The notes: generated by a model not told the origin, from the sequence alone. A DNA stretch of 43,442 nt from an uncultured Gammaproteobacteria bacterium (GCA_964482065.1 CAYZWC010000001.1:1-43442); one strand, 5' to 3'; positions 12,037 through 28,463 are shown, numbered from the stretch's first letter. Translations and numbers: made by a program.

Positions 12037-13716
12037 ATGATTAATATAAAAAAAATATATAAAGATTCCATTAGCTCCTTGTATAAAAAGTGGTGGTTTG
12101 TGTTGTATTTTATTTTTATAATAATTATTGCTACGACTGATCTTTCTTGGACGGAAAGAAGTCTGTTTTTTGTTTATTCGTTAATAATTTTTTTGGTTAT
12201 TGAACGAGTTGTAAAAATAAAAAAATACAATAATGCATTGAGACAAGCCGGTCCTTATTCGGAAAATAAATTTTTTTTGTATCTTTTAATTTTTTCCGTA
12301 ATTTTTATTATTGCCACCCGATTAGTTCTTTTTATACGTTTTGGTGAAGCTCCGCTTGGTTACGATACAGGTTATTATTTATCAAGATTTTTAAAATTTG
12401 ATATATCTCTATCTTCACACCGACCTTTGTTTTTAAGCATAGTTCCTCTGCATCGTTTGGGATTGCCGCCTTCGGCGGCGCTTCATGTTATGTATGTACT
12501 TTACCAATTTTTGATTGTCGGAGGTCTTTATATTTTTTTTCGTTTTTCTAACTTATCGAATAATTTAAAATTCACCGCCGCTGGTATTTTCTTTTTTGCT
12601 ATTTCGGCTACGCAGTTTTATGCTTATTGGTGGATGTTCGCCCAGCAGATATTTGCCTTAGGCCTTATGTTTGCCACCTTAGCGCTCCTTTTTAAAAAAC
12701 CTGTTTTAGCAATTCTCACCGGAGGATTGGGTATCATTATTCATACCCCAACTTTTGCGGTGTTTGGCTTTGCGTTGACAATTTTTTTTATTGTTTGGTC
12801 GGCAGCGGATATGATTAAGACAAAAAAATTGAATAAAAATTTTTTTATTATCATGGGCGCGGCTTTAGGCATGTTTTTGATTTTAGTAACTCTCTATACC
12901 GACGCTTTTCTATCATATGTTAATTATATTGTCGAGCATCGTGGATTAACCACCACTTTTCCTGTCTGGGAAGTACCTGAAGCAAAGGGGCTATTCATTA
13001 GTGTGCCTTATTTTAAGCTTTTAAGCTTAATTATAATACCTTTTACTTTGATAGGTCTTTTACGACCTTCGTTATGGGGCAGACCTCTTAGAAAAAATAA
13101 TAATAGTTTTTCGTTTGAAATATTATTATTATTCCTATACATTATCTTTATAACCCTGCTTATTTTGATCTCCTTTCCTTTTATTTACCAAAATCGCTTT
13201 ATTATAATTTTTGATCTTTTTCTTATTATCTTTGCCACTCCCACGTTTGTTAGTTTTACCCGTTATTTTTTTAAAGAGAAATTTGGCTCGGTTATTTTGA
13301 TTATGTTTTTATTAACTCTTTTTGTGCGTTCCGGTATTATAGTTTGGGAACAAAAACCTTATATATATAATAATGAATTGCAGGATATCAAAAACGTTGC
13401 TTTGTGTACCGAGAAAAATGTTTATATTATGGCCACTCTAAATACCTATGCTCCCTGGGTAGCTGGATATTCTCGCCGCCCGTCGATTGGTCCCGGTCTC
13501 GGTTATGATCTGTGGGATTTGCCGCAATGGATAGAATTTTGGGAAAGTGAGGACAATAATAGAAGATTAGAATTATTAAATATGTATGATTATCCTCTTT
13601 ATATTTTCTTAAGTTCCCACCAAGATTCCTCATTACCATTTTATCAATTTATAATAAGTGATAGCCATTTTACCAAAATTAATAGTCATATTTGGAAATA
13701 TAACCCAGGAATATGA
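12037..13716 (+). CDS. polytopic membrane protein, possible GT-C-fold glycosyltransferase
   Basis: 559-aa ORF with about 12 or more hydrophobic helices over the first ~430 aa, followed by a ~120-aa soluble C-terminal domain. This architecture resembles the ArnT/PMT/oligosaccharyltransferase type. No diagnostic motif was confirmed. Confidence 0.4.
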   Translation: MINIKKIYKDSISSLYKKWWFVLYFIFIIIIATTDLSWTERSLFFVYSLIIFLVIERVVKIKKYNNALRQAGPYSENKFFLYLLIFSVIFIIATRLVLFIRFGEAPLGYDTGYYLSRFLKFDISLSSHRPLFLSIVPLHRLGLPPSAALHVMYVLYQFLIVGGLYIFFRFSNLSNNLKFTAAGIFFFAISATQFYAYWWMFAQQIFALGLMFATLALLFKKPVLAILTGGLGIIIHTPTFAVFGFALTIFFIVWSAADMIKTKKLNKNFFIIMGAALGMFLILVTLYTDAFLSYVNYIVEHRGLTTTFPVWEVPEAKGLFISVPYFKLLSLIIIPFTLIGLLRPSLWGRPLRKNNNSFSFEILLLFLYIIFITLLILISFPFIYQNRFIIIFDLFLIIFATPTFVSFTRYFFKEKFGSVILIMFLLTLFVRSGIIVWEQKPYIYNNELQDIKNVALCTEKNVYIMATLNTYAPWVAGYSRRPSIGPGLGYDLWDLPQWIEFWESEDNNRRLELLNMYDYPLYIFLSSHQDSSLPFYQFIISDSHFTKINSHIWKYNPGI

Positions 13717-14135
13717 AAAAATCCGCTATAAATTTTATTAAAAATTTTTTTATTATAATTATTATATTGTTTATTTTGTCTGGAGTTTTAATGATTTGGT
13801 TTTCTTTGCTGGATTCATTGCGTATTGTTTTTGGAGCATTTTCCGTGTTAGCATTACCTGGATTTTTTTTAAGTTACATCTTTTTTCCAAATGCTGCACC
13901 ATATACAGAACAGCCGGATGTTAAAAATTCAAAATCGTTGGATTATATTGAGAGGGGTATCCTCAGTTTATTTTTTTCCATTTCTATGGTAACATTAGCA
14001 TTGACTTTTTTGCGCCGTATTGAGATTATTCTTTCCCCTTTTATTATAACGATGGTTGTTTTGGTTATTAATGTTGTATGTTTAGTTGGCGCTTTACTTG
14101 TGCATTGGCGTTGGCGTTTAAACAAAAGTAAATAA
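13713..14135 (+). CDS. small 4-TM membrane protein of unknown function
   Basis: 140-aa ORF with four clear hydrophobic segments. Its start overlaps the preceding stop (ATGA), implying translational coupling. Confidence 0.5.
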   Translation: MKKSAINFIKNFFIIIIILFILSGVLMIWFSLLDSLRIVFGAFSVLALPGFFLSYIFFPNAAPYTEQPDVKNSKSLDYIERGILSLFFSISMVTLALTFLRRIEIILSPFIITMVVLVINVVCLVGALLVHWRWRLNKSK

Positions 14136-14143
14136 TTATTTAT

Positions 14144-14944
14144 ATGAATAATTTGTCAAAATTAGAAAATCAAAGCATTTATATAATACGCGAAGCCTAT
14201 AACCAATTTAAGAACGTGGCTCTACTTTGGTCCATTGGTAAGGATTCGACCACTCTTTTGTGGCTTTGCCGCAAAGCTTTTTATGGGAAGCTACCTTTCC
14301 CGGTTTTACATTTGGATACCGGTTATAAATTTAAAGAGATTTATAATTTTAGGGAGAAGTATGCCAAAGAGTGGGGGCTAGATTTAATAGTAGAAAAAAA
14401 TCAAGCCGTTTTGGATGCGGGCATGGGTCCGGAAAAGGGAAATTTGAAATGTTGCACCGCCCTGAAGACAAATAATTTAAAACAGGCAATTAGCAAGCAT
14501 CAATTTCAGGCTCTTTATTTAGCAATTCGTCGTGATGAGCACGGCATCAGAGCTAAAGAAAGAATTTTTAGTCCGCGCGACGATGAATTTTCTTGGAATT
14601 ATAAAAATCAGCCGCCGGAGCTTTGGGATCAATATAAAACCAAGGCTAAAGAAGAAGAGCACCTTCGCGTTCATCCCATGCTTGCCTGGAGAGAAATAGA
14701 TATTTGGGAATACACCAAAAGAGAAAATATTCCCGTTGCCGATTTGTATTTTGCCAAAAACGGCAAAAGATACAGAAGCATTGGCTGCGCACCCTGTTGT
14801 TCCCCTGTTGATTCCGAGGCCGATACTTTGGATAAAATTATTGAGGAATTAAAAACCACTAATGTCTCTGAAAGGAGCGGCCGGTCTCAAGATAAAGAAT
14901 CTGATTATATGATGCAGAAATTAAGAAGTTTGGGATACATGTAA
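14144..14944 (+). CDS. cysD: sulfate adenylyltransferase subunit 2
   Basis: 266-aa ORF that is collinear with CysD: LENQSIYIIRE, LWSIGKDSTTLL, PFPVLHLDTGYKFKE, RRDEHGIRAKERIFSPRD, NQPPELW, SERSGRSQDKE and LGYM at the C-terminus. Confidence 0.88.
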   Translation: MNNLSKLENQSIYIIREAYNQFKNVALLWSIGKDSTTLLWLCRKAFYGKLPFPVLHLDTGYKFKEIYNFREKYAKEWGLDLIVEKNQAVLDAGMGPEKGNLKCCTALKTNNLKQAISKHQFQALYLAIRRDEHGIRAKERIFSPRDDEFSWNYKNQPPELWDQYKTKAKEEEHLRVHPMLAWREIDIWEYTKRENIPVADLYFAKNGKRYRSIGCAPCCSPVDSEADTLDKIIEELKTTNVSERSGRSQDKESDYMMQKLRSLGYM

Positions 14945-14951
14945 ATATTTT

Positions 14952-16193
14952 ATGTCTAATAAAAAAGATAGTTTAAAATTTGTAATTATTGGCCATGTTG
15001 ACCACGGCAAATCCACTTTGATAGGACGATTGCTTTATGATACTAATTCTCTTTCGCCAGAAAAGATTATGGAGATGGAAAAATGTTCCAGCGACTTGGG
15101 AAGGAAGTCGGAGTTTGCTTTTATTCTGGATCATCTTGAAGAAGAGCGCAGCCAGGGCATTACCATTGATACCGCCCAGATTTTTTTTGATACGCCGGAA
15201 AGGGAATATGTCATCATTGATGCTCCGGGTCATGTGGAATTTGTAAAAAATATGATTACCGGAGCTTCCCAAGCCGACGCGGCCATTTTGATAGTTAGCG
15301 GTAAAGAAGGCATGCAGGAGCAAACCAGGCGGCATTCTTATATTTTAAGTTTATTGGGGATTAAGCAGGTTGCCGTAGCGGTGAATTTATGGGAGGATCA
15401 ATTGCCCGGTGCCGAGGATGATTTTAAAAAAATAAAAAAGGAAATTGAAGAGTTTTTCGGCAAGATTAATATCAGCGCTGGCTGCATTGTTCCGATTGTC
15501 GCCACCGAAGGAGATAATATAGCTTCCAAGTCTGAAAGATTTAAATGGTATCGGGGCGAGACTATTTTGGAAGTCCTGGCTGATTTTAAATCAGCTCCGG
15601 TTCTTGAAGAAAAACCTTTGTATTTTGCCGTGCAGGATGTTTATAAAATAGAAGATAAAAGGATTTACGCCGGACGGGTAGAGTCGGGGTTTTTGAAAGA
15701 GGAACAAAAAATTAATATTTATCCTGAAAAGACATCCACCACGGTTAAAAGCATTGAAAAATTTCAGGAATCGGTATCCGAAGCCGGCCCGGGAGAAGCT
15801 GCGGGTTTTACCACCGCTGATCCGGTCTTTATAGACCGCGGCAATATTATTTGCGAGGCCGGGTTTCAACCGTATATTACTAAAGAATTTCAAGCCAGTA
15901 TTTTTTGGATGAATAAAAAACCACTCAAGGCGGGAGAGATTGTCGTATTAAAATGCGCTTGCCAAGAAGTGAGCGCGCATTTGGAAATTAAAAAAATAAT
16001 TAATTCTTCCACCCTGGAAGAACAGAATAGAACAGAAAACAATTTAGAAAATTTAGAAGTTGCCGAAGCTATTGTAAAAATGAAAAAGTCGGTTGTAGTT
16101 ACCAAATTCAGCAATATCCAAGAAATAGGGAGATTTGTTTTGCTCCGCGACGATGATATTTGCGCCGGAGGAATTATTACACAAATTTTATGA
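14952..16193 (+). CDS. cysN: sulfate adenylyltransferase subunit 1 (EF-Tu-like GTPase), with no fused APS kinase domain
   Basis: 413-aa ORF with G1 (GHVDHGKST), G2 (RSQGITID), G3 (DAPGH) and EF-Tu-like domains II/III. The G4 position reads NLWE instead of NKxD. The protein ends after domain III. Confidence 0.8.
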   Translation: MSNKKDSLKFVIIGHVDHGKSTLIGRLLYDTNSLSPEKIMEMEKCSSDLGRKSEFAFILDHLEEERSQGITIDTAQIFFDTPEREYVIIDAPGHVEFVKNMITGASQADAAILIVSGKEGMQEQTRRHSYILSLLGIKQVAVAVNLWEDQLPGAEDDFKKIKKEIEEFFGKINISAGCIVPIVATEGDNIASKSERFKWYRGETILEVLADFKSAPVLEEKPLYFAVQDVYKIEDKRIYAGRVESGFLKEEQKINIYPEKTSTTVKSIEKFQESVSEAGPGEAAGFTTADPVFIDRGNIICEAGFQPYITKEFQASIFWMNKKPLKAGEIVVLKCACQEVSAHLEIKKIINSSTLEEQNRTENNLENLEVAEAIVKMKKSVVVTKFSNIQEIGRFVLLRDDDICAGGIITQIL

Positions 16194-17461
16194 CAACAAA
16201 ATCAAAAACAATTATAATCGGATTGGACGGAGTTCCCTACGGTCTGCTTCAAACTCTGGCCAATGAAGGTGTCATGCCCAATACCCAAAAATTAATTGAT
16301 AACGGAATTTTTAAGCAGATGAGCTCTTCCATACCAGAGGTTTCCTCAGTAGCCTGGTCTTCCATTATTACCGGGAAGAATCCGGCTGAGCATGGAATTT
16401 TTGGATTTATGGATTTGGTTCCGGGGTCATACAAGATAAATTTTCCCAATTACAATGATTTAAAAACGCCGGCATTTTGGGAAAATTTGGAAGAACGTTC
16501 TGTTATTATTAACGTCCCCTCCACCTATCCGGTACATTCCATGAATGGAGCACATATATCAGGGTTTGTTTCTTTATTCTTGGAGCAAAGCGTTTATCCT
16601 GCTGATCTTGTTCCCAAATTAAAAGAATTGGATTATCGGCTTGATGTGGATTCGGAAAAAGCCCACGAGTCCATGGATGATTTTTTAGATGATTTGCGAG
16701 CCACCCTGGAAGCGAGAATCAAGACTTATGAATATTTATGGGAGAGAGAGGATTGGCGGACTTTTATGCTGGTGTTTACCGGTACCGATCGTTTGATGCA
16801 TTTTTTGTGGGAAGCATATGAAAATAAGGAACATAAATATCATGAAGAATTTTTAAATCATTTTCGTCGGGTTGATCAAGCCATCGGAGACGTCAGGGGC
16901 AAAATAACCGATGATGATTTGCTGATAATGCTTTCTGATCATGGTTTTGAGCGTTTAGATAAAGAAATTTATATCAATTATTTGTTGCAAGAAAAAGAGT
17001 TTTTAAAATTTAAACCGGGAGAGGAGTACAGTTTGGAAAACATAGACGAAGGCAGCAAGGCTTTTGCCCTGGATCCTTCCCGTATTTATATAAATTTAAA
17101 AGGAAAGTATCCGGGCGGAAGTGTCGCCCTGGAAGACAAAGAAAAGATTTTGCAAGAGCTAGAAGAATTGTTTCAAGAGCTGGAAGTTGATAATAAAAAA
17201 GTAATCAGAGACGTTTATAGAAAAGAGAATATTTATAACGGGCCGGGCTTGGCGCAGGCTCCCGATTTGGTTTTGGTTAGCAATTCCGGCTTTGACCTTA
17301 AGGCCAATCTCCGTGCCACCGAGTTGGCGGGTAAAAAGATTTTTACTGGCAAGCATACGCAGGATTCCGCCTTTCTGCTGGTTAATAATTTTTCGGGAGA
17401 TAATTTCCCTGAAAAAGTCTCCGTTTTTGATGTCGCGAATATTATAAAGAGAAAATTTTAG
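16190..17461 (+). CDS. cytoplasmic alkaline-phosphatase-superfamily protein (type I phosphodiesterase / nucleotide pyrophosphatase-like)
   Basis: I prefer the ATG at 16190, which overlaps the cysN stop (ATGA) and gives MTTKSKTIIIGLDGVPYG. Motifs are IIGLDG (metal Asp), SSVAWSSIITGKNPAEHG (nucleophile region), MLSDHGFE and TGKHT. No signal peptide or TM helix is present. Confidence 0.7.
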   Translation: MTTKSKTIIIGLDGVPYGLLQTLANEGVMPNTQKLIDNGIFKQMSSSIPEVSSVAWSSIITGKNPAEHGIFGFMDLVPGSYKINFPNYNDLKTPAFWENLEERSVIINVPSTYPVHSMNGAHISGFVSLFLEQSVYPADLVPKLKELDYRLDVDSEKAHESMDDFLDDLRATLEARIKTYEYLWEREDWRTFMLVFTGTDRLMHFLWEAYENKEHKYHEEFLNHFRRVDQAIGDVRGKITDDDLLIMLSDHGFERLDKEIYINYLLQEKEFLKFKPGEEYSLENIDEGSKAFALDPSRIYINLKGKYPGGSVALEDKEKILQELEELFQELEVDNKKVIRDVYRKENIYNGPGLAQAPDLVLVSNSGFDLKANLRATELAGKKIFTGKHTQDSAFLLVNNFSGDNFPEKVSVFDVANIIKRKF

Positions 17462-17550: not shown

Positions 17551-18528
17551 ATGGCAAAATCTTACGTTGATCCAACATTTCATTTAAAGAAGAAAAACAA
17601 GGATATCGAGCATGAAGATTATTTGGAATACCGCCGGAAGTGGAGTGAAAATCCTAAAAATTTTATTGTGGGTGATTTCCCTATTCATCTTGATTTGGAG
17701 GCCACTTCAAATTGTAACCTCAGGTGTTTTATGTGTTTTCAATCTTTTGACAAGCCCGAGTCGGTTACTATGGATTTGGATCTTTTCAAAAAAAATATTG
17801 ATGAGGGAGCATCCAAGGGCCTTTGCTCCATAAAAACCATGTACCGCGGCGAGCCCCTACTGCACCCGGATATAGTAGAGATGGTTAGATATGCCAAAGA
17901 AAAGGGAATTATTGAAGTTATGTTTAATAGCAATGCGACTCTTTTGACTGAAGATAAGGCTCGCGCTCTTATAGAAGCCGGGCTTGATAAATTAATTTGT
18001 TCGGTGGATGGATGTACCAAAGAAGTTTATGAAAGCGTGAGAATAGGAGCGAATTTTGAAACCATGCTTAACAATATAAAAACCTTGCAGCGCCTGAAAA
18101 AAGAAATGGGTTCTAAAACTCCGATAGTAAGAGTGCAGATGGTAGACACGCCGAGGAATCACCATCAAATAGATGAGTATTTGGAATTTTGGGGGAAGAT
18201 TGTAGATCACGTGGCGGTAGAGGATATGTTGGACTGGAATGCAGAAGACGAAGACGCGACTCCATTTCCTGATTTTGCCTGCGCTCAATTGTGGCAGAGG
18301 CTTGTTATTACCGCTGATGGCGATGTACTTCCTTGCTGCCGGGCTTTGCGCGGCGGAAATGAGAAGCTCGAAGTTTTGGGAAATGTTAAAGAAAGTACGG
18401 TTGAAGAAATTTGGAAAGGCGATAAATTGAATCAATTCAGAGAGTTGCATAAAGGCGGTAATTCTCATGCCATGCGCCTTTGCCGTTTATGTGGGCTCAG
18501 AAAATCTTTGCTTAACAAAAACAATTAA
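17551..18528 (+). CDS. radical SAM enzyme with a C-terminal Cys-rich SPASM/twitch-like domain
   Basis: 325-aa ORF with the CX3CX2C motif (SNCNLRCFMC), a GEPLL SAM-binding strand, and C-terminal cysteines (FACAQLW..., DGDVLPCC, LCRLCG). Confidence 0.8.
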   Translation: MAKSYVDPTFHLKKKNKDIEHEDYLEYRRKWSENPKNFIVGDFPIHLDLEATSNCNLRCFMCFQSFDKPESVTMDLDLFKKNIDEGASKGLCSIKTMYRGEPLLHPDIVEMVRYAKEKGIIEVMFNSNATLLTEDKARALIEAGLDKLICSVDGCTKEVYESVRIGANFETMLNNIKTLQRLKKEMGSKTPIVRVQMVDTPRNHHQIDEYLEFWGKIVDHVAVEDMLDWNAEDEDATPFPDFACAQLWQRLVITADGDVLPCCRALRGGNEKLEVLGNVKESTVEEIWKGDKLNQFRELHKGGNSHAMRLCRLCGLRKSLLNKNN

Positions 18529-18532
18529 AATC

Positions 18533-19558
18533 ATGAGCATTTTACAAGCAGATAAAAAACCATACTTGATTGCCGAATGCGCCTATTCTTATGAAGGTGA
18601 TGAAAATTATTTAAGGGAATCAATAAAAAGAATAGCGGAATCTGATTCTGCTAATGCTGTTAAGTTTCACATTCTTTTGGATATAGACACCTATGCTTGT
18701 CGTGACCACGAAGTTTATGATTTGCTGAGACCTTGGCTTTTTTCTACACAAAAGTGGGAAGAAATTATAGATTTTGCCAAAGGCTTAAATCTCGATGTAA
18801 TTATTTTGGCCGATGATTTAGGCAGTTTGCCGTTTTTAAAGAGTATTGAGGAAAAATTATCAGCTATTGAAATTCATGCTTGTTCACTTAATGATACTGA
18901 TATGCTGGCAAGGGCCGCGGAGTTTAAGATTCCCGTGATTTTGGGCATCGGCGGATCTACACTAGAAGAAATTTCTTTTTCCATTGATTTCTTAAAAGGC
19001 AATGGGAAAGACGAGATAATATTAATGTATGGCTTTCAGAATTTCCCCACCCGCTATGAATATATCAATTTTCGCAAAATGGAAAAATTAAAAAAAGAAT
19101 TTGTCTTGCCTATGGGCTATGCGGACCATACGGCTTGGGATAATGAAAATCAGGAATTAATTACTTTGGCCGGCTTTTTACTTAGTGACGGAATAATTGA
19201 AAAACATTTTGTTTTGCGTGCGGGAGACAAGAGAACTGACGCGGCCGCCGCGGTTTCCGCTGAAGATTTTAAAAGTTTGACGGAAAAAATGAAAATTTTA
19301 CAAAAAGCTTTAGGCAGCGGCTCGTTGGAGCTCAATAAATATGAACTGGATTACGGGAAAATAGGAATTATTAAGAAAACCATTGTTGCCGCCCGCGATA
19401 TAGCGCAAGACGAAGAAATAACCGAAGAAAATATCGCTTTCAAAAGAACCTCCCAAGAAAACGGCGCTCCGCAAAAAGAAATAATTAATTTTTTAGGCAA
19501 AAAAGCCAAAGTGTCAATTTCAAAAGACCAGCTGATTACCGCCAATAACATTTATTAA
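18533..19558 (+). CDS. divergent NeuB-family sugar-PEP condensing enzyme (SpsE-like) with a C-terminal SAF domain
   Basis: I prefer the ATG at 18533, 4 nt after the preceding stop. The protein is collinear with the NeuB at 20647, but key motifs are altered: LIAECAYSYEGD versus IIVDAGVNHNGD, GYADHTAW versus GYSDHTQG, and EKHFVLR versus EKHFTLD. A SAF-like tail (IVAARDIAQDEEITEENIAFKR) is present. Confidence 0.65.
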   Translation: MSILQADKKPYLIAECAYSYEGDENYLRESIKRIAESDSANAVKFHILLDIDTYACRDHEVYDLLRPWLFSTQKWEEIIDFAKGLNLDVIILADDLGSLPFLKSIEEKLSAIEIHACSLNDTDMLARAAEFKIPVILGIGGSTLEEISFSIDFLKGNGKDEIILMYGFQNFPTRYEYINFRKMEKLKKEFVLPMGYADHTAWDNENQELITLAGFLLSDGIIEKHFVLRAGDKRTDAAAAVSAEDFKSLTEKMKILQKALGSGSLELNKYELDYGKIGIIKKTIVAARDIAQDEEITEENIAFKRTSQENGAPQKEIINFLGKKAKVSISKDQLITANNIY

Positions 19559-19566
19559 TTTTATAT

Positions 19567-20637
19567 ATGAGAACCGCAGTTACCATAACAGTAAGAATGA
19601 AGTCCACTCGGCTTCCTAAAAAAGCTTTGAAGGAATTTTGCGGCAAGCCGATGATTGACCATCTCATAGAAAGAGTGGGGAGGGCCAAGCATCCGGATGA
19701 GATCATTTTGTGCACTTCGACAAATCCTCAAGACGATGTCTTGGAAGAAGTGGCTCGGAGAAATAACATTAAATTGTTTCGAGGTGATGAGGATGATGTT
19801 CTGGACCGTTTGTTTAGGGCGGCTCGGGAAAATGATATTAATTTTATTGTTTCCACCACCGGAGATAACCCATTGACTGATCCGGAACACATTGATAAAA
19901 CAATCGAAAAATTCAAGGAAACCGGAGCTGATTACATTACCGGTTTGGACCTGCCCTGGGGAACTTTTTCTTACGGATTAAAAATTGGGGCTTTGGAAAA
20001 AGTTTTGGAATTAAAAGAAGAACGCGACACCGAAGTTTGGGGCCAATATTTTACAAAATCAAATTTATTTAAATTGGATAAAATAGATGTAGATGATTTT
20101 TTGAAAGATTCAGATCTTCGTTTAACCGTAGATACGCCGGAAGATTTTCAATTAATTGAAAGTATCTATAATGAATTATACAATAGCAACCCAGAATTTA
20201 CCTTGGCTGATGTGGTCAGGCTCATGAATACAAAGCCGGAGTTAAAAGAAATTAACGGGCATATAATCCAAAAAATTTCTAATCCCATAAATACCGATTC
20301 ATTAATTAATTCAAATAAAGCTATGCATATTTCCAAAGAAGTTATTAAGGATTGTTTTAATCAGCTGGAAGATAAGAAGGAACTGTCATTTACCTTTAAT
20401 GAAGATCCCAAGATATTTTTTATAAATTTGCTGGCTGAGTTTAAGGGCGAAGATGAGGTCCATGAAAATGATGATGATTTGTATTATGTTGCGGAAGGAA
20501 GCGCTGAATTAATTGTAGATGGAAAAAGTCTAAATATAGCCGCTGGCGATTTTGCGCATGTCCCGGCCGGGCAAGTACATAAAATAAGTTATACAAAACA
20601 AGGAATAAAATACATTGTCATTAAAATGGCAAAATAA
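19567..20637 (+). CDS. cytidylyltransferase (SpsF/CMP-ulosonic acid synthetase-like) fused to a C-terminal cupin domain
   Basis: 356-aa ORF. The N-terminal ~240 aa carry ITVRMKSTRLPKKALKEFCGKPMIDH and TTGDNPL (CTP_transf_3-like). The C-terminal ~100 aa carry the cupin-like HENDDDLYYVAEGSAELIVDG...GDFAHVPAGQVHK. Confidence 0.7.
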   Translation: MRTAVTITVRMKSTRLPKKALKEFCGKPMIDHLIERVGRAKHPDEIILCTSTNPQDDVLEEVARRNNIKLFRGDEDDVLDRLFRAARENDINFIVSTTGDNPLTDPEHIDKTIEKFKETGADYITGLDLPWGTFSYGLKIGALEKVLELKEERDTEVWGQYFTKSNLFKLDKIDVDDFLKDSDLRLTVDTPEDFQLIESIYNELYNSNPEFTLADVVRLMNTKPELKEINGHIIQKISNPINTDSLINSNKAMHISKEVIKDCFNQLEDKKELSFTFNEDPKIFFINLLAEFKGEDEVHENDDDLYYVAEGSAELIVDGKSLNIAAGDFAHVPAGQVHKISYTKQGIKYIVIKMAK

Positions 20638-20646
20638 TATTTTAAT

Positions 20647-21702
20647 TTGAATTGGATGCAGATAAGAATAGGTCAAAAAATAATAAGTGAAGAGCACCCT
20701 GTTTTTATTATTGTTGATGCCGGAGTAAACCATAACGGAGATTTAGACCTGGCAAAAAAATTAATCGACGCCGCTGCTCGGTCAGGAGCCGACGCTGTTA
20801 AATTTCAAACTTTTAATCCCGATACTTTAATTACCAAAACCGCCAAACGAGCCAAATATCAGGAGAAAAATATAGGAGGGGAAGAAACGCAGTATGAAAT
20901 GCTTAAGAGATTGATGCTAAAAAGGGAATACCACCCTTCGTTAAAAGATTATGCGGAGGATAAAGGCTTGATTTTTCTATCCACGCCTTTTAGCCTAGAT
21001 GACGCTGATTATCTTTACGATTTGGGGATTCCCGCCTTTAAAGTCGGTTCTACGGATTGCAATAATATTCCTTATTTAAAACATATTGCCAAGAAGGGTT
21101 TGCCAATTATTTTATCAACCGGCATGTCTTCTCTGGAGGAAGTTAAAGAATCGGTTTTAGCTATACAAAATGAAGGCAATGATCAAATTGTAGTTTTGCA
21201 CTGCACTACTAATTACCCTACGGCTATGGAGGAGGTAAATTTAAAAGTCATGGATACTTTAGCTCGTGAGCTCGGGACTTTGGTGGGTTATTCTGACCAT
21301 ACTCAAGGAATTGAAGTCCCTATTGCTGCCGCTGCCCGTGGCGCCAGAATAATTGAGAAACATTTTACTTTGGATAGGAATATGGAAGGGCCGGACCACA
21401 AAGCTTCTTTGGAACCCGGAGAATTGGAGGCCATGATAAGAGCCGTCAATAATATAGAAAAATCTTTGGGGTCAGGAATTAAAGAACCGGCTCCATCTGA
21501 ATTAGAAGTCGCGGAAGTGGCTCGCAAAAGCATTGTTGCCGGCACTGACATTCCCAAAGGCAGCGTCTTGTCAAAAAACATGCTTGTCTTAAAAAGGCCC
21601 GGCATCGGACTAAAACCGGCGATTATTGAAGAGCTTATCGGTAGAAAAACAAAAGAGGATATAAAAAAAGACGAATTGATAAAATGGGAACAAATTTTAT
21701 GA
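20647..21702 (+). CDS. neuB: N-acylneuraminate/legionaminate-type nonulosonic acid synthase
   Basis: 351-aa ORF with canonical NeuB motifs (GVNHNGDLDLAKKLIDAAARSGADAVKFQTF, STPFS, GYSDHTQG, EKHFTLD) and a SAF domain at the C-terminus. The track start at 20647 is TTG; an in-frame ATG lies at 20656. Confidence 0.88.
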   Translation: MNWMQIRIGQKIISEEHPVFIIVDAGVNHNGDLDLAKKLIDAAARSGADAVKFQTFNPDTLITKTAKRAKYQEKNIGGEETQYEMLKRLMLKREYHPSLKDYAEDKGLIFLSTPFSLDDADYLYDLGIPAFKVGSTDCNNIPYLKHIAKKGLPIILSTGMSSLEEVKESVLAIQNEGNDQIVVLHCTTNYPTAMEEVNLKVMDTLARELGTLVGYSDHTQGIEVPIAAAARGARIIEKHFTLDRNMEGPDHKASLEPGELEAMIRAVNNIEKSLGSGIKEPAPSELEVAEVARKSIVAGTDIPKGSVLSKNMLVLKRPGIGLKPAIIEELIGRKTKEDIKKDELIKWEQIL

Positions 21703-22847
21703 AGAAAAGAAAAATTTTATACATTTCCGGTACGCGCGCCGATTACGGGTTGATGCGAGAAACATTGTTTAAAATTAAAAACAATTCCAAGCTTGATTTG
21801 TCTATTGCCGCCTGTGGTATGCATATTATGCCTGAATTTGGAAATACCGTTCAAGAAATAAAAAATGATAATTTTAAAGTCCATATTTTGAATGCCAAAT
21901 TCCAGAGGGATAATTATGAGTCCATGGCCCGTTTTGTCGGCAAGTTAGTTGGGTTATTGGTTGGCGAGGTCAAAAAGATTAAGCCGGACATTATTTTACT
22001 TTTGGGTGATCGTGGAGAAATGCTTGCCGGCGCTATAGTGGGAGCTTATTTAAAAATTCCGGTAGCGCATATACATGGGGGCGAAGCGACGATGACCGTG
22101 GATGAATTTGCCCGGCACGCCATTACAAAACTTAGCCATATTCATTTTGCTGTTTCGAAAAAATCTGCCGAACGCATCAAAAAAATGGGCGAGGATTCAT
22201 GGCGAATATTTTTAACCGGGGCTCCGGGATTGGATAGTATTTTGTCGCATAAATTTTCGCCGGCAAAAAAAATGGCCGCCAAATATAATTTGGATTTATC
22301 AAAAAAAATCATATTAATGGTCCAGCATCCGGCTGAAGCTGAAGCTAAAGAATCAGCCCGCCAAATAAAAGAAACATTGGAAGCGATTAAGGAGATTGGC
22401 GAGCAAGCTATTATAATTTATCCAAATGCTGATGCTGGAGGGCGTGAGATGATAAAAGTTATTAAAAAATATGAAAATGTTCCATTTTTTCAAATATATA
22501 GAAGTCTCCCGCATGACGACTATTTAAGTTTATTAAAATTAGCCGATGTTTTAGTGGGTAATACTAGTTCCGGGATAGTTGAGGCGCCTTCTTTTGGCTT
22601 GCCGGTAGTAAATATAGGATTGAGGCAAGAAGGCAGGGAGGCTTCAGCTAACGCGCTTCATGTTAATTACGACAAGGCCAAAATAAAAGCGGTTATTAAT
22701 AGGGCATTGCGTGATAAAGTTTTTATTAGAAAGGCAAAAAATTGCCATAGTCCTTATGGAAACGGCCGCGCGGGGGAGAAAATAGCAAAAGTTTTAAGCA
22801 ATATTAAAATAGATAGCAAGCTGTTGAATAAAAAAATAGCTTACTAA
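21699..22847 (+). CDS. neuC: UDP-N-acetylglucosamine 2-epimerase (hydrolysing), NeuC/LegG type
   Basis: I prefer the ATG at 21699, which overlaps the neuB stop (ATGA) and gives MKKRKILYISGTRADYG. Motifs are LLGDRGEML, AHIHGGE, HFAVS and GNTSSGIVEAPSFGLPVVNIG. Confidence 0.85.
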   Translation: MKKRKILYISGTRADYGLMRETLFKIKNNSKLDLSIAACGMHIMPEFGNTVQEIKNDNFKVHILNAKFQRDNYESMARFVGKLVGLLVGEVKKIKPDIILLLGDRGEMLAGAIVGAYLKIPVAHIHGGEATMTVDEFARHAITKLSHIHFAVSKKSAERIKKMGEDSWRIFLTGAPGLDSILSHKFSPAKKMAAKYNLDLSKKIILMVQHPAEAEAKESARQIKETLEAIKEIGEQAIIIYPNADAGGREMIKVIKKYENVPFFQIYRSLPHDDYLSLLKLADVLVGNTSSGIVEAPSFGLPVVNIGLRQEGREASANALHVNYDKAKIKAVINRALRDKVFIRKAKNCHSPYGNGRAGEKIAKVLSNIKIDSKLLNKKIAY

Positions 22848-22852
22848 ATAGC

Positions 22853-23641
22853 ATGACTGCGAATACTAAAGAAAAAAAAGACAAAGTAATTTTTGCCGGC
22901 GATAGGGATTTGGCGGTCGATGTTTTGAAATTTATTTTGGAAAGCGGAGTGCGTCCTTTGGCGCTTATGGTCCCCGACAGAGGGAAAGCTTCCCACGCGG
23001 AAGATTTAATTTCTTTGTGTTCCCACCTAGATAAGTCTCATATTATAGAGGGGGCTGGATTTAAAAGCCCGGAAGGCATCAATTTTTTGTCTTCTTTGGA
23101 TGCTGACTATATCGTGAGCATACATTATCCTTATATATACCCGGCCGAAGTTTTGCGTGTCCCCAAATATGGAGCCATGAATTTGCACCCGGCCTACCTT
23201 CCCTTTACTCGGGGGTGGCATACTTCCAGTTGGGCTATTTGGGATGAAGTTCCTTTTGGAGCCACTCTGCATTTTATGAATGAAGGTCTTGATACCGGAG
23301 ATATTATACACCAAAAAGAGCTTGAAGTTTTACCGGAGGATACAGCTGACTCAGCTTATAAAAAAGCCAAACAATTAGAATTGGAGGTTTTTAAGGAAGC
23401 TTGGCCATCCATTGTTTCAGGCGATTACCAATTAAAAGTTCAGTCCGCCGCTTCCGGTACTTTTCATAAAAAGAAAGATCTATCCGCCATTCAAAAAATT
23501 GATTTGGAAGAGTTTGTTAAAGCCAAAGATTTAATTAAAAAAATTAGAGCGCTGACTACTAATAATATAGAAGAGGGAGCTTATTTTGAATCCGGCGGGC
23601 AAAAGTATCGTTTACAAATACGAATTAAAAAAGAAGATTAA
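22853..23641 (+). CDS. formyltransferase (Fmt/ArnA-N-like), probable sugar N-formyltransferase
   Basis: 262-aa ORF with the formyl_trans_N catalytic pattern: MNLHPAYLPFTRG (Asn/His) and LDTGDII (Asp). Its location inside an amino-sugar block suggests a sugar substrate. Confidence 0.75.
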   Translation: MTANTKEKKDKVIFAGDRDLAVDVLKFILESGVRPLALMVPDRGKASHAEDLISLCSHLDKSHIIEGAGFKSPEGINFLSSLDADYIVSIHYPYIYPAEVLRVPKYGAMNLHPAYLPFTRGWHTSSWAIWDEVPFGATLHFMNEGLDTGDIIHQKELEVLPEDTADSAYKKAKQLELEVFKEAWPSIVSGDYQLKVQSAASGTFHKKKDLSAIQKIDLEEFVKAKDLIKKIRALTTNNIEEGAYFESGGQKYRLQIRIKKED

Positions 23642-23659
23642 TTTATTTTAAAGTAATTT

Positions 23660-25117
23660 ATGACAGACAAAGATATTGCTTCTTTGATGGTAGAAGCGGC
23701 AGGCACAATTAAAGAAGCCATGGAAAATATTACTAAAGGCAAGCGGGGGATTGCCGTTGTTGTTGATAAAAATAAAAAATTACAAGGAGTGGTAACCGAT
23801 CGGGATATCCGAGTAGCTCTTCTTAATAATACTGATTTTTCTGAACCGGTATCAAAGATAATGAATGCCGTGCCGGTGATAGCTCGGGAAGGAACTCCAG
23901 CGGCCGACCTTTTGGAAATATCTTTAGAAAAAAATGTCCTTCAAATTCCAATCGTAGATTCAGACAACAAGTTAGTGGATATTATCGGACGTAACGAATT
24001 AAAAACCATACCGCTTTCTTCTCCCGATATTACAAAAAAAGAAGTGGATGTGATTAATAAAGTTTTAGCGAGCGCTCATTTGAGTATTGGTCCCCAGATC
24101 AAAGAGTTTGAACAAAAAATAGCTGATTTTATCGGCGTAAAATACGCGGTGGGCGTAAATAGCGGGACTAGCGGTCTTCATTTATGCATCAGAAGTTTAG
24201 ATATAAAAGACGGCGATGAAGTAATTACTTCACCATTCAGTTTTATTGCTTCGGCTAATTGCATGCTCTTTGAAAGAGCAAAGTCGGTCTTTGCCGATAT
24301 TGACGAACAGACACTTTGCATAGATCCGGAAAAAATAGAAGAAAAAATAACGGAAAAAACCAAAGCCATTCTGCCGATTCATATTTTCGGGCAGCCGGCT
24401 GCCATGGATAAAATTATGGAAATCGCCCGTCGCTACAATTTAGCGGTGATTGAAGATGCTTGCGAGGCCATTGGCGCGGAGATTAATGGAAAGAAAGTGG
24501 GCTCTTTCGGCGACGCCGCGGTTTTTGCTTTTTATCCCAATAAACAGATTACTACGGCCGAGGGCGGCATGGTGGTAACCAATAATGAAGAGATAGCCAA
24601 GCTTTGCTACAGTATGCGTAACCAAGGACGCGATGAAGATATGAGTTGGCTCAATCACAAAAGATTGGGTTATAATTACCGCATGAGCGAACTTAGCGCG
24701 GCTCTGGGGGTCGTTCAGATGGAACGTATTCATGAAATTTTGGATAAACGCCAGCGGGTAGCCGATTTGTATAATAAAAAATTAAGCCGTTTAGATGGAA
24801 TTATTATTCCCGAAGCAGCTCCGGACACCAAGATGAGTTGGTTTGTTTATGTGATTCGCCTCAACCCTTCCAAATTTTCCAAAGAAGATCGCGATGAAAT
24901 TATAAATAAATTGAGAGACGCGGGCGTGAGCTGCAAAGAGTATTTCCCCCCGATTCATCTAGAGCCTTTTTATACTGAAAATTTTGGCTTTAAGCCCGGC
25001 GATTTTCCCATCACCGAGAGAGTTTCCGGATCCAGCATCGCCTTGCCCTTCCACAATAATTTAAGTGAAGAAGAAATAGATTATGTTGTGGAATCTTTAG
25101 AAAAAATAATTAAATAA
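23660..25117 (+). CDS. CBS-pair domain fused to a DegT/DnrJ/EryC1/StrS-family sugar aminotransferase
   Basis: 485-aa ORF. The N-terminal ~115 aa form two CBS-like repeats (GIAVVVDKNKKLQGVVTDRDI; IPIVDSDNKLVDIIGRNEL). The remainder is typical DegT (GPQIKEFEQKIADF, NSGTSGLHL, SFIASAN, FYPNKQITTAEGG, GYNYRMSEL). Confidence 0.82.
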   Translation: MTDKDIASLMVEAAGTIKEAMENITKGKRGIAVVVDKNKKLQGVVTDRDIRVALLNNTDFSEPVSKIMNAVPVIAREGTPAADLLEISLEKNVLQIPIVDSDNKLVDIIGRNELKTIPLSSPDITKKEVDVINKVLASAHLSIGPQIKEFEQKIADFIGVKYAVGVNSGTSGLHLCIRSLDIKDGDEVITSPFSFIASANCMLFERAKSVFADIDEQTLCIDPEKIEEKITEKTKAILPIHIFGQPAAMDKIMEIARRYNLAVIEDACEAIGAEINGKKVGSFGDAAVFAFYPNKQITTAEGGMVVTNNEEIAKLCYSMRNQGRDEDMSWLNHKRLGYNYRMSELSAALGVVQMERIHEILDKRQRVADLYNKKLSRLDGIIIPEAAPDTKMSWFVYVIRLNPSKFSKEDRDEIINKLRDAGVSCKEYFPPIHLEPFYTENFGFKPGDFPITERVSGSSIALPFHNNLSEEEIDYVVESLEKIIK

Positions 25118-26611: not shown

Positions 26612-28459
26612 ATGGCGAGCAGTATTTTATTAATAGACATCAGTAAATTTGATGATCGGCTCATTCCGCTGGTAAAAGATTTTGAACATGGCCCCGGCGG
26701 TAAGATTATTATTTCTTTTTCTTTACCGATTATTTGGAAAATTAAAGAAATTGTTTCGCCTTCGGTTGAGGTGACCTGGAGCCAAGAAGTTTTGGCCGAT
26801 GATTTTGAAATAATTGATGAGGCTGCTTACAGCATAATTCGCGGCTGGCATGATGGGAAAGGTTTTAGCTCCAATTTAATATATAACGGAGTCAATCTGG
26901 GAGCGACGGTTGAGCATTCTTTGTCCTTGGTTTTGCCTCAGCTTTTAGAGAAAATTAAACTTGTTAAAAAAATTTTGCAGCACGAAAATCCGGGACAAGT
27001 GACAGTAATAAGCAACAATAGCTTATTGGCGGATATATGTGAGAATGTTAAGTCCGGTTTGAGTTTGTCTTTGAACATACAAAGTATTGTTTGGAACGAG
27101 GAAAATTGTCAAGAAAATTTTTTCCGGCCGGAAATTGGCAAGCTGCCCATTATTGATTTTTTAGGCGGACAGCTTATGAGGATGTTTGGTTTCTTTTTTA
27201 AAAAAAAATCCGTTGAAAGAAAAGAAGCAATCTTGGTAAGAAATCCCAAACAGCTTTCCACTCTTTTATCAAAAGATTATAAGATTATTTTTTGCGCGGA
27301 AAAAATTAACCGAGAGCTTACTTTGGGCGTATTACGGAAAAAAGTTCCTTGCCATATAGCTAATGCGTTATTTGCTCGGGATAAAAATAAAATGAAGAAG
27401 TTATGGGGCTCGTTGAACAATGGTCACGAGTTTAAAAAAATTTTTATTTTTGAAGAGGTTGATTTTTGGCCTTTGCTTAAAAAAGATTTTAAAAAAATTT
27501 TTATCACAGCGTTTCCATTCTATATAGGTTATATTAAAAAGGCGGATAAAATTATTCAAAAGACTAAGCCTGCTTTGATGATTTCTACGCCGGGAGTTAC
27601 GGCCCCGGACAGGATACTTTTCGAGCTGGCAGATAAGTATAATATTCCTTCACTGGATATCCAGCACGGTCTTTTGGGAGACCGGCGGGCCAGAGAAATT
27701 ATTTATGCTTCGTGTATGGCTGTCTGGGGAGAAGCAACCAGAAGGCAGTTGGTGAATTGGGGAAATAATGAAGATAAAATTTTTGTAACCGGTAATTATA
27801 AGTTTGATAATTATAAAAATACAACAGGCTTAATACCGCGTGAAGATTTGTGTAGCCAGCTGGGTATTGATCCGACTAAAAAATTTTTTGTTTGGGCGAC
27901 CGGAGTTTATTTTGCCGATAATCTTCCCTACGTTTCTGCGGTTAGAACGCCCGATGAGGGAAGAGTCATCTTTACTTCTATTTTGAAGGTATTAGAAAAG
28001 TTTCCAGAAAAGCAATTAGTTGTTAAAACTCACCCCATGGAAAAACTAGAGGGGTATCTGGATATTTTGGAAAATTTTCCATCCTTAGAGAAACGTGTTA
28101 AGGTAATAAAGCAAGTTCATTTATACAGCCTTTTGAAGGAATCTGAACTTTTGTTTACGCGAGGCTCCACCACTGATTTGGAAGCCATGTTTTTTGGCAA
28201 GCCTATTATTGCTATGAATTTTTCATATGATAATGATTTTTTTTATAAATTTGATATGGTTGGTTGTCCTGTTTTAATAGTTAAAGACCGCAATCGATTA
28301 TACGAAATGGTGCAAAGTGTTTTAACTGATAATTCATTGCTAGCAAATTTACACAAAAGTCAGGAAAAATTTATTCAAGAGTTTGCCGGCGAGATGGATG
28401 GCCGGAGCGGAGAACGCCTGACTGCAGCGATTAAAAAAATTGTTCAAAACAATAGCTAA
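26612..28459 (+). CDS. hypothetical 615-aa protein; the C-terminal half looks like a GT-B-fold glycosyl/ulosonic-acid or glycerophospho-transferase
   Basis: No TM helix is present. The C-terminal half shows a Rossmann-like alternation: LMISTPG, LDIQHG, IFVTGNYKFD, FFVWATG, LVVKTHPME and LFTRGSTTDLEAMFFGKPII. No family could be assigned with certainty. Confidence 0.35.
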   Translation: MASSILLIDISKFDDRLIPLVKDFEHGPGGKIIISFSLPIIWKIKEIVSPSVEVTWSQEVLADDFEIIDEAAYSIIRGWHDGKGFSSNLIYNGVNLGATVEHSLSLVLPQLLEKIKLVKKILQHENPGQVTVISNNSLLADICENVKSGLSLSLNIQSIVWNEENCQENFFRPEIGKLPIIDFLGGQLMRMFGFFFKKKSVERKEAILVRNPKQLSTLLSKDYKIIFCAEKINRELTLGVLRKKVPCHIANALFARDKNKMKKLWGSLNNGHEFKKIFIFEEVDFWPLLKKDFKKIFITAFPFYIGYIKKADKIIQKTKPALMISTPGVTAPDRILFELADKYNIPSLDIQHGLLGDRRAREIIYASCMAVWGEATRRQLVNWGNNEDKIFVTGNYKFDNYKNTTGLIPREDLCSQLGIDPTKKFFVWATGVYFADNLPYVSAVRTPDEGRVIFTSILKVLEKFPEKQLVVKTHPMEKLEGYLDILENFPSLEKRVKVIKQVHLYSLLKESELLFTRGSTTDLEAMFFGKPIIAMNFSYDNDFFYKFDMVGCPVLIVKDRNRLYEMVQSVLTDNSLLANLHKSQEKFIQEFAGEMDGRSGERLTAAIKKIVQNNS

Positions 28460-28463
28460 AGTT

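Follow-up and report, generated by a model that had tools for sequence, protein, structure and literature searches.

A Conserved cysC-less CysD-CysN Module Coupled to an Alkaline-Phosphatase-Superfamily Enzyme, and Its Possible Role in Sulfuryl Transfer

CysD, CysN and AlkP1 in the Window

We analyzed three consecutive genes, cysD, cysN and a third that we call AlkP1, at positions 14,144 to 17,461 of a 43,442-nucleotide stretch of DNA deposited under an uncultured Gammaproteobacteria bacterium (GCA_964482065.1, CAYZWC010000001.1; the whole stretch is hereafter the window). CysD, CysN and AlkP1 make up a single module of sulfate activation that is conserved, translationally coupled and devoid of cysC. 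The CysD protein, a PP-loop ATP pyrophosphatase with the PAPS_reduct fold, is recognized as CysD by NF003587 (355 bits, cutoff 195), matches PF01507 at 6e-41 and the P. syringae CysD (1ZUN_A) at an E value of 3e-67, and falls under the cutoffs of the stricter equivalog models TIGR02039 and NF009214. By Pfam, CysN consists of a G domain followed by domains II and III and nothing else; as an earlier reading of this DNA (the original prediction) had claimed, it carries no fused CysC, its domains stopping at eEF1A_C. It scores 320.5 bits against TIGR02034 (cutoff 336.1), and among PDB sequences the archaeal EF-1alpha 1JNY (247 bits) is roughly level with the CysN chain 1ZUN_B (242 bits); judged by its sequence, the window protein is a divergent CysN. 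GTP-dependent synthesis of adenosine 5'-phosphosulfate (APS) by the pair is assigned by homology. Five additional cysteines of CysD (CC103-104 and C215xxC218C219) are invariant in 46 of 46 AlkP1-linked CysD proteins (loci L002-L081) and absent from the crystallized P. syringae protein 1ZUN_A. We take this CC...CxxCC pattern to be that of the 4Fe-4S cluster ligands of APS reductases, and it suggests that the AlkP1-linked proteins are an Fe-S-containing subclass of CysD.

Absences reported here and below refer to the 43-kb window and to the related loci that we recovered. No window open reading frame (ORF) of at least 120 amino acids (aa), AlkP1 and its paralog AlkP2 included, matched the APS_kinase or Sulfotransfer (1-5) families of Pfam, and tblastn with a verified APS kinase from related locus L035 (PF01583, 205 bits; TIGR00455, 231 bits) found no match in the window. 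A CysD-derived hidden Markov model run over the six-frame ORFs of the window matched CysD alone, and thus no CysH. That protein, the sole PAPS_reduct member in the window, ends in ...KLRSLGYM and not in the ECGLH of APS and 3'-phosphoadenosine 5'-phosphosulfate (PAPS) reductases. The earlier statement that the 43 kb hold no APS kinase, CysH or sulfotransferase was upheld by all these searches. At the junction between cysN and AlkP1 the sequence reads ...ATT TTA TGA, the AlkP1 ATG lying at 16190, so that the ATGA overlap of stop and start codons proposed before can be read directly.

Active Site and Fold of AlkP1

AlkP1 matches PF01663 at 139 bits (cutoff 23), the family of the clade of nucleotide pyrophosphatases/phosphodiesterases (NPP) and PhnA. 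Its first beta-strand (residues 7-12, the GLDG strand starting at residue 7) leads into the metal-ligand Asp13 and leaves no room for a signal peptide, in line with the cytoplasmic location claimed earlier. Seven residues, D13, S52, D200, H204, D250, H251 and H389, do not vary among 78 orthologs, and the predicted two-metal set (Asp; Asp-x3-His; Asp-His; His) is complete, as is the position of the Ser nucleophile; the ligands presumably correspond to those of NPP residue by residue. In the alignment S52 takes the place of PhnA's nucleophilic Thr, the residue mutated in 3T02. Its invariance, the full ligand set and this alignment support the Ser of EVSSVAW as the nucleophile, as had been suggested. 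The AlphaFold (AF2) model of AlkP1 (predicted local distance difference test 86; predicted template modeling score 0.87) has as its nearest Foldseek matches PhnA (1EI6) and the NPP1/Xac NPP structures, at template modeling scores of 0.55-0.67 and about 14% identity. Five further residues (R201, K388, R298, K345 and H68) are invariant in AlkP1 and absent from AlkP2, and no cysteine is invariant among AlkP1 orthologs. AlkP1 thus resembles the NPP/PhnA clade in Pfam family, fold, two-metal ligands and nucleophile pattern, yet differs from it in its low identity, in a Ser instead of a Thr nucleophile, in being cytoplasmic, in the extra invariant Arg and Lys residues near the ligands, and in a genomic partner that is cysN, not phosphonate or nucleotide-scavenging genes.

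Sequence searches gave AlkP1 little in the way of a name. A PDB search with an AlkP1 profile returned only a weak N-terminal match, to PhnA, an NCBIfam scan produced no meaningful family name, and source annotations read "AlkP superfamily phosphohydrolase/phosphomutase." AlkP1 does not contain the formylglycine sulfatase motif C/S-x-P/A-x-R, having S-S-V-A-W there without the Arg, and its match to the NCBIfam arylsulfatase model is negligible (18.7 bits, cutoff 481). Nor does it show the features of APS or PAPS reductases (the PAPS_reduct fold, a C-terminal catalytic Cys, ECGLH), its fold being another and none of its cysteines invariant.

Linkage of AlkP1 to cysDN across Phyla

Relatives of AlkP1 are numerous: 2800 were found at E<=1e-5 among the candidates scored, and among representatives of 50%-identity clusters 12,689 matched at E<=1e-3 and 2,012 at <=1e-30. 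Close orthologs, 55-65% identical, occur in Planctomycetota, Omnitrophota, Chloroflexota, Actinomycetota, Thermodesulfobacteriota, Bathyarchaeota and Hodarchaeota. We surveyed their loci with one genome per GTDB species, which yielded at least 129 loci, of which 80 were kept; neighboring cysN and SQD1 genes were counted by tblastn. Of the 70 loci whose upstream flank measures 2.5 kb or more, 48 have a cysN gene next to AlkP1, directly upstream and on the same strand, and always accompanied by cysD; this arrangement recurs in Planctomycetota, Omnitrophota, Chloroflexota, Actinomycetota, Elusimicrobiota, Spirochaetota and archaea. The distance between the cysN stop and the start of AlkP1 has a median of 4 nt; in 42 of 50 loci it does not exceed 20 nt, and in 14 the genes overlap. 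All 47 linked CysN proteins measured are 407-434 aa long, and hence none is fused to CysC. Searching 84 loci with the APS-kinase probe gave a match in L035 only, no canonical sulfotransferase recurs in the 80 loci, none of which holds a CysH-type reductase, and a regular-expression scan of the locus ORFs for P-loops found nothing. The linkage of cysDN and AlkP1 is not due to chance, and to the earlier question whether this clade recurs beside cysDN lacking cysC the survey answers yes, tightly and across phyla. A relative from the cultured Desulfovibrio inopinatus is uninformative as to context, its contig ending right after the gene. The related loci that bear AlkP1 are glycan or exopolysaccharide loci, and the sugar genes next to the module differ from one to another. 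Together with the sialic-acid-like genes around the window module (see below), this agrees with the earlier placement of cysDN in a glycan setting rather than one of cysteine biosynthesis.

Other genes accompany the module in part of the loci. Membrane proteins of the DUF2061 type or anion permeases of the TauE family are often encoded between or beside cysD and cysN. In Planctomycetota (L082, L083 and L085, minus strand) a divergent operon recurs beside cysD, encoding two PF01663 proteins of about 700 aa, which bear twin-arginine translocation (Tat) or signal sequences. It further encodes a membrane protein of 280 aa, a small protein of 61 aa with a C-terminal tail (see below), and either a sulfatase-fold protein or an Arylsulfotran_2 protein. 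The latter was seen in one locus, represented by two near-identical contigs from related samples (L085/L086), where its operon diverges from cysD-cysN-AlkP1. By regular-expression scan the C/S-x-P/A-x-R motif is absent from 18 of 18 sulfatase-fold proteins; one representative, inspected by eye, has Thr-Arg-Pro-Ser-Ala at that position. Finally, a 707-aa protein (P0329, L090:10001-12124) consists of an AlkP1-like domain, which has the SS motif (39% identity), fused to one that resembles CysD (27% identity) and has the same C-terminus as CysD. Its surroundings are much like the window, with a radical S-adenosylmethionine (SAM)/SPASM gene, NeuB, three CMP-transferases and a tailed AlkP2-like paralog, and no cysN lies within reach. 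No further AlkP1::CysD fusion was found among the best 120 matches.

A Second Context: SQD1 and Thioredoxin

AlkP1 also keeps a different company. Across the 62 loci with both flanks available, cysN is upstream in 40 and an SQD1 gene downstream in 19, both being present in 4 and neither in 7; in 15 of the 19 loci with SQD1 there is no cysN upstream. Among the seven with neither, L033 has TauE directly upstream, L035 an APS kinase and L076 a partial cysN. The protein encoded downstream of AlkP1 in the 19 loci is a short-chain dehydrogenase/reductase of 500 aa, a homolog of UDP-sulfoquinovose synthase (E 3e-81 against Arabidopsis SQD1, 1I24; NF041015, 402 bits), followed by a thioredoxin (PF00085, mostly WCPPC), an epimerase and a GT2 glycosyltransferase. 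The full order cysD-cysN-AlkP1-SQD1-thioredoxin is found in four loci, and in three more SQD1 and thioredoxin stand divergently upstream of cysD. The known counterpart is the SQD1/SqdB/Agl3 pathway of UDP-sulfoquinovose synthesis, and a clear SQD1 homolog lies directly downstream of AlkP1 in about one-third of related loci. These homologs differ in that some 90 aa are added at the N-terminus, a conserved Cys-rich stretch in which six or seven cysteines are kept (CxCWNCP...C...EC...EC), and in being paired with a thioredoxin, most often of the WCPPC type (L038-L079; examples of these features lie at L050:11406-12938 and L042:6677-7012). In a neighbor-joining tree the cysDN-linked and SQD1-linked AlkP1 orthologs interleave, with the window protein among them, and we therefore regard AlkP1 as one orthologous family. 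Since it pairs with cysDN or with SQD1 and thioredoxin, AlkP1 is the constant element between an APS producer and a sulfite consumer. The SQD1/thioredoxin context points to a route from APS through sulfite to a C-S sulfonate at least as much as to O-sulfation.

These neighborhoods bear on two other accounts of AlkP1. According to the first, it is an enzyme of sugar metabolism (a sugar-phosphate mutase, NDP-sugar (nucleoside diphosphate sugar) pyrophosphatase or phospho-sugar transferase) merely co-regulated with cysDN, as every context being a glycan or exopolysaccharide locus, the adjacency to SQD1, maker of a UDP-sugar, and the COG label and source annotation of phosphohydrolase/phosphomutase might indicate. 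However, the conserved and translationally coupled partner is cysN and no sugar gene, the sugar neighbors vary between loci, and one AlkP1-like protein is fused to a CysD-like domain, all of which makes this account improbable. The second sees in AlkP1 a product-removing or regulatory hydrolase of pyrophosphate, or of APS/AMP, that pulls or throttles CysDN and transfers nothing. PF01663 enzymes do hydrolyze nucleotide pyrophosphate bonds, APS synthesis is thermodynamically unfavorable, and the coupling to cysN is tight; yet in 15 of the 62 loci AlkP1 is kept with SQD1 and thioredoxin without cysDN nearby, it follows CysC in L035 and CysQ in L042, and its 55-65% cross-phylum identity and its own set of cationic residues favor a specific substrate. 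In addition, cells already own a general pyrophosphatase, and hydrolysis of pyrophosphate is not known for NPP-type enzymes. Such a hydrolase thus seems to us just as unlikely as the sugar enzyme.

A Possible Relay of Activated Sulfate

Why AlkP1 should stand between these partners may be understood if it uses up the activated sulfate that CysDN supplies, relaying the sulfuryl group, family-wide toward sulfite and sulfo-sugars and in the window to another acceptor, a reading to which we give somewhat less than an even chance. CysD and CysN would, by homology, make APS from sulfate, ATP and GTP; AlkP1, translated in step with CysN and probably associated with the complex, would be the dedicated consumer of this APS. 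Its two-metal NPP-type center, with Ser52, Arg201, Lys388, Arg298 and Lys345, would break the phosphosulfate bond and transfer the sulfuryl group onward, APS kinase and PAPS being dispensable in such a scheme, and removal of APS would pull the unfavorable adenylylation forward. Across the family the group would go to a thiol of the WCPPC thioredoxin, with release of sulfite for UDP-sulfoquinovose synthase, a reaction of the APS:thioredoxin sulfotransferase type; because of the SQD1/thioredoxin context, sulfite formation appears the best-supported fate family-wide. In the window the sulfuryl group would instead pass to an acceptor of the nonulosonic-acid glycan pathway, which could be a nonulosonic-acid intermediate, and the hand-off may run via AlkP2, which bears the C-terminal tail of CysD.

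Several lines of evidence support this relay: the frequency and tightness of the link to a cysN that is never fused to cysC; the intact active site of AlkP1 and its cationic residues missing from AlkP2; the AlkP1::CysD fusion in a locus of NeuB, CMP-transferase and radical SAM/SPASM genes; the TauE, DUF2061 and arylsulfotransferase-like genes beside cysD and cysN; the fold nearest to PhnA and NPP; the pairing with SQD1 and thioredoxin, in four loci together with cysDN, and the one tree in which both kinds of ortholog interleave; and the need of SQD1 for sulfite, yet with no CysH-type reductase in any locus. The identity of the host argues in the same direction. The leucyl-tRNA synthetase of the window is nearest to sequences of Patescibacteria, the candidate phyla radiation (CPR), with Ca. 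Falkowbacteria as best named match (64%), and on this evidence the host is a small-genome CPR bacterium. Bacteria of this group usually lack cysteine biosynthesis, which makes an assimilatory role of cysDN in the window unlikely.

Other observations weigh against the relay. The NPP/PhnA clade canonically attacks phosphorus, not sulfur, and two-zinc sites are poor sulfatases. With no invariant Cys in AlkP1, a reductase role would need direct attack by thioredoxin. The window itself has no SQD1, thioredoxin, TauE or DUF2061, and the AlkP1::CysD fusion is represented by one sequence, which comes from a single assembly. Two loci, moreover, bring PAPS metabolism next to AlkP1: L035, with the order DUF2061, AlkP paralog, APS kinase, AlkP1, and L042, with DUF2061, AlkP paralog, CysQ, AlkP1, SQD1 and thioredoxin, where the CysQ is genuine (TIGR01331, 267 bits; cutoff 229). 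Because APS kinase or CysQ lies directly upstream of AlkP1 in these loci, PAPS or 3'-phosphoadenosine 5'-phosphate (PAP) may be involved in some genomes. Thus, of the PAPS-independent module put forward in the original prediction, the cysC-less linkage stands, with an APS kinase in 1 of 84 loci, while strict independence from PAPS is not secure for the family as a whole. The same two loci ground a conventional account, in which cysC is encoded elsewhere in the genome and the substrate of AlkP1 is PAPS, the enzyme being a PAPS-dependent transferase, an analogue of the reductase or a PAP(S) phosphatase; the negative results for cysC pertain to the loci, which leaves room for it. Against it speak the single APS kinase among the 84 loci, the lack of any cysNC fusion in 47 loci, the small genome of the CPR host, and the presence of CysQ as a neighbor, which would make a CysQ-like role of AlkP1 redundant; we hold this account to have a low probability. 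AlkP1 as an analogue of CysQ or of APS kinase was likewise considered and rejected, genuine copies of these adjoining it in L042 and L035.

A further alternative is adenylyl transfer, raised in the original prediction as transfer of AMP onto a sugar or carrier. Here the target of Ser52 would be phosphorus, in APS (or ATP), and AMP would be passed from a Ser-AMP intermediate to an acceptor. NPP enzymes canonically work in this way, and AlkP1 has an NPP-like active site; but ATP could donate AMP without the costly GTP-driven CysDN, and the association with sulfite-requiring SQD1 and with thioredoxin would be left unexplained. Of the alternatives considered we find this one the least likely.

Compared with known systems, the sulfuryl relay proposed for AlkP1 has partial counterparts. 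CysDN(C)/NodPQ, which serves PAPS sulfotransferases in rhizobial Nod factor and mycobacterial sulfolipid synthesis, likewise sets CysD and a CysN GTPase in a non-assimilatory, glycoconjugate context. Here, by contrast, no APS kinase is fused or adjacent in the window, no Sulfotransfer family member is present and the third gene is a coupled PF01663 enzyme; the CysD of the module, unlike 1ZUN, has the CC...CxxCC cysteines. Thioredoxin-dependent APS reductase (CysH), once called "APS sulfotransferase," has the net reaction that is proposed here (APS + dithiol -> sulfite + AMP), thioredoxin genes occur in AlkP1 clusters, and the module stands between sulfate activation and a sulfite consumer. However, the fold of AlkP1 is unrelated and without a catalytic Cys, the APS-reductase-like Fe-S cysteine pattern being found on CysD instead. 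PAPS-independent arylsulfate sulfotransferases share with the proposed reaction a sulfuryl transfer without PAPS, and an Arylsulfotran_2 protein occurs near the module in L085/L086; these enzymes are beta-propellers that move sulfate between phenols, whereas AlkP1 is unrelated to them and would draw on APS.

Textbook exits from APS are two, phosphorylation to PAPS for sulfotransferases and reduction by CysH- or Apr-type reductases. We tentatively suggest, as a broader proposal and one less probable than the relay itself, that an AlkP-superfamily enzyme provides a third, non-homologous use of activated sulfate. This enzyme, a CysDN-docked APS:thiol or APS:hydroxyl sulfuryl transferase, would yield either sulfite for sulfo-sugars or sulfate esters, and would do so in the absence of APS kinase, PAPS, CysH and any canonical sulfotransferase. 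Its partners would be recruited via a shared C-terminal LGY tail; the module would be common among uncultured anaerobes, and a CPR bacterium would have received it by horizontal transfer. Each component is of a known family; their combination and the implied reaction are undescribed, and we found no description of the cysDN-AlkP1 linkage in the literature. If the proposal is true, the AlkP-superfamily partner of CysDN is a new exit from APS in at least 129 species-level genomes. It would also show a route by which anaerobes and CPR bacteria reach sulfonated or sulfated surface glycans, and add a catalytic activity to a superfamily that serves as a model of enzyme promiscuity. The AlkP1 family spans thousands of protein clusters, and the module has only three genes. 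Orphan cysDN in organisms without cysC and cysH would be accounted for too, as in the anaerobic methanotrophic archaea ANME-1, where cysDN without APS/PAPS reductases has been noted (PMC6286981).

AlkP2 and a Shared C-terminal Tail

The C-terminal tail of CysD (window 14920-14944) recurs at the end of AlkP2 (30060-30086), a protein that the earlier account of the window did not include. Its consensus is [KR]L[KR]xLGY[ILM], and in the window only CysD and AlkP2 carry it. Among the related loci (L002-L090), the tail ends 46 of 46 CysD proteins, 13 of 14 DUF2061 proteins and 10 of 18 sulfatase-fold proteins, as well as AlkP2-like paralogs (including one in L090), the L035 APS kinase, the 61-aa protein of the divergent operon and other small proteins (61-170 aa). 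Altogether 84 of 1149 ORFs bear it, against about 0.8 expected by chance. The tail may be a docking peptide, for which CysN is an obvious candidate binder, as the CysD of 1ZUN ends in a similar ...RQGYF. Against simple docking to CysN are the tailed proteins of L090, where no cysN is within reach, and one tailed sulfatase-fold protein with a Tat signal. AlkP2 is possibly an acceptor-specific downstream partner of the cysD-cysN-AlkP1 module. Translation of AlkP2 may in fact begin at an internal ATG some 24 nt past the TTG.

The Surrounding Glycan Locus

Pfam scans of the window ORFs place cysD-cysN-AlkP1 within a one-strand glycan locus of about 30 kb (table 1), and the same gene order is found in an independent assembly from the same sample. 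Precursor genes comprise two UDP-sugar dehydrogenases, an epimerase, a formyltransferase and a DegT aminotransferase with CBS domains; those for nonulosonic acids, two NeuB paralogs, NeuC and a CMP-transferase with a cupin domain; and those for assembly, a flippase, a Wzy-like polymerase, GT4 and GT2 glycosyltransferases and a priming sugar transferase. The nonulosonic-acid genes are a candidate source of the acceptor sugar.

Table 1. Positions of the module genes and of other window features mentioned in the text
Feature	Position	Strand	Remarks
cysD, catalytic subunit of heterodimeric sulfate adenylyltransferase	14144..14944	+	266 aa; NF003587, PF01507, 1ZUN_A
cysN-like EF-1alpha/EF-Tu-family GTPase	14952..16193	+	413 aa; GTP_EFTU, D2 and eEF1A_C domains; no fused APS kinase
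AlkP1, cytoplasmic NPP/PhnA-clade alkaline-phosphatase-superfamily enzyme	16190..17461	+	423 aa from ATG; PF01663
AlkP2, second PF01663 paralog	28440..30086	+	30% identity to AlkP1; Thr at nucleophile position; tail ...KDKLKGLGYL
Small DUF1616 membrane protein	13713..14135	+	Directly upstream of cysD; context only
Radical SAM/SPASM enzyme	17551..18528	+	Directly downstream of AlkP1; context
Nonulosonic-acid (sialic-acid-like) sugar genes	18467..25117	+	Divergent NeuB-like, CMP-transferase-cupin, NeuB, NeuC, formyltransferase, DegT-CBS; Pfam/NCBIfam

In related loci the position held here by DUF1616 is often filled by membrane proteins (DUF2061, TauE). The tie of the radical SAM/SPASM gene to the module is uncertain; a similar gene lies close to the module, together with NeuB genes, in L073 and L090. 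The possibility that it encodes a formylglycine maturase of AlkP1, like the anaerobic sulfatase-maturating enzymes, was rejected because AlkP1 lacks C/S-x-P/A-x-R and because the gene is directly adjacent only in the window, being merely near the module in the other two loci. As called, this ORF and the divergent NeuB-like ORF (window 17551-19558) overlap by 62 nt, and the NeuB-like gene probably starts at an internal Met near 18533. One of the two NeuB paralogs scores far under the NeuB/PseI cutoffs. Two fusions in the sugar genes are unusual, a CMP-sugar cytidylyltransferase with a C-terminal cupin domain (19567-20637) and a DegT-type aminotransferase with N-terminal CBS domains (23660-25117). 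The leucyl-tRNA synthetase (window 3170-6898) is 1242 aa long and has inserts corresponding to PD-(D/E)XK nuclease-like and alpha/beta (Ser) hydrolase domains; comparable or other inserts (e.g. NUDIX) occur in many of its Patescibacteria homologs.

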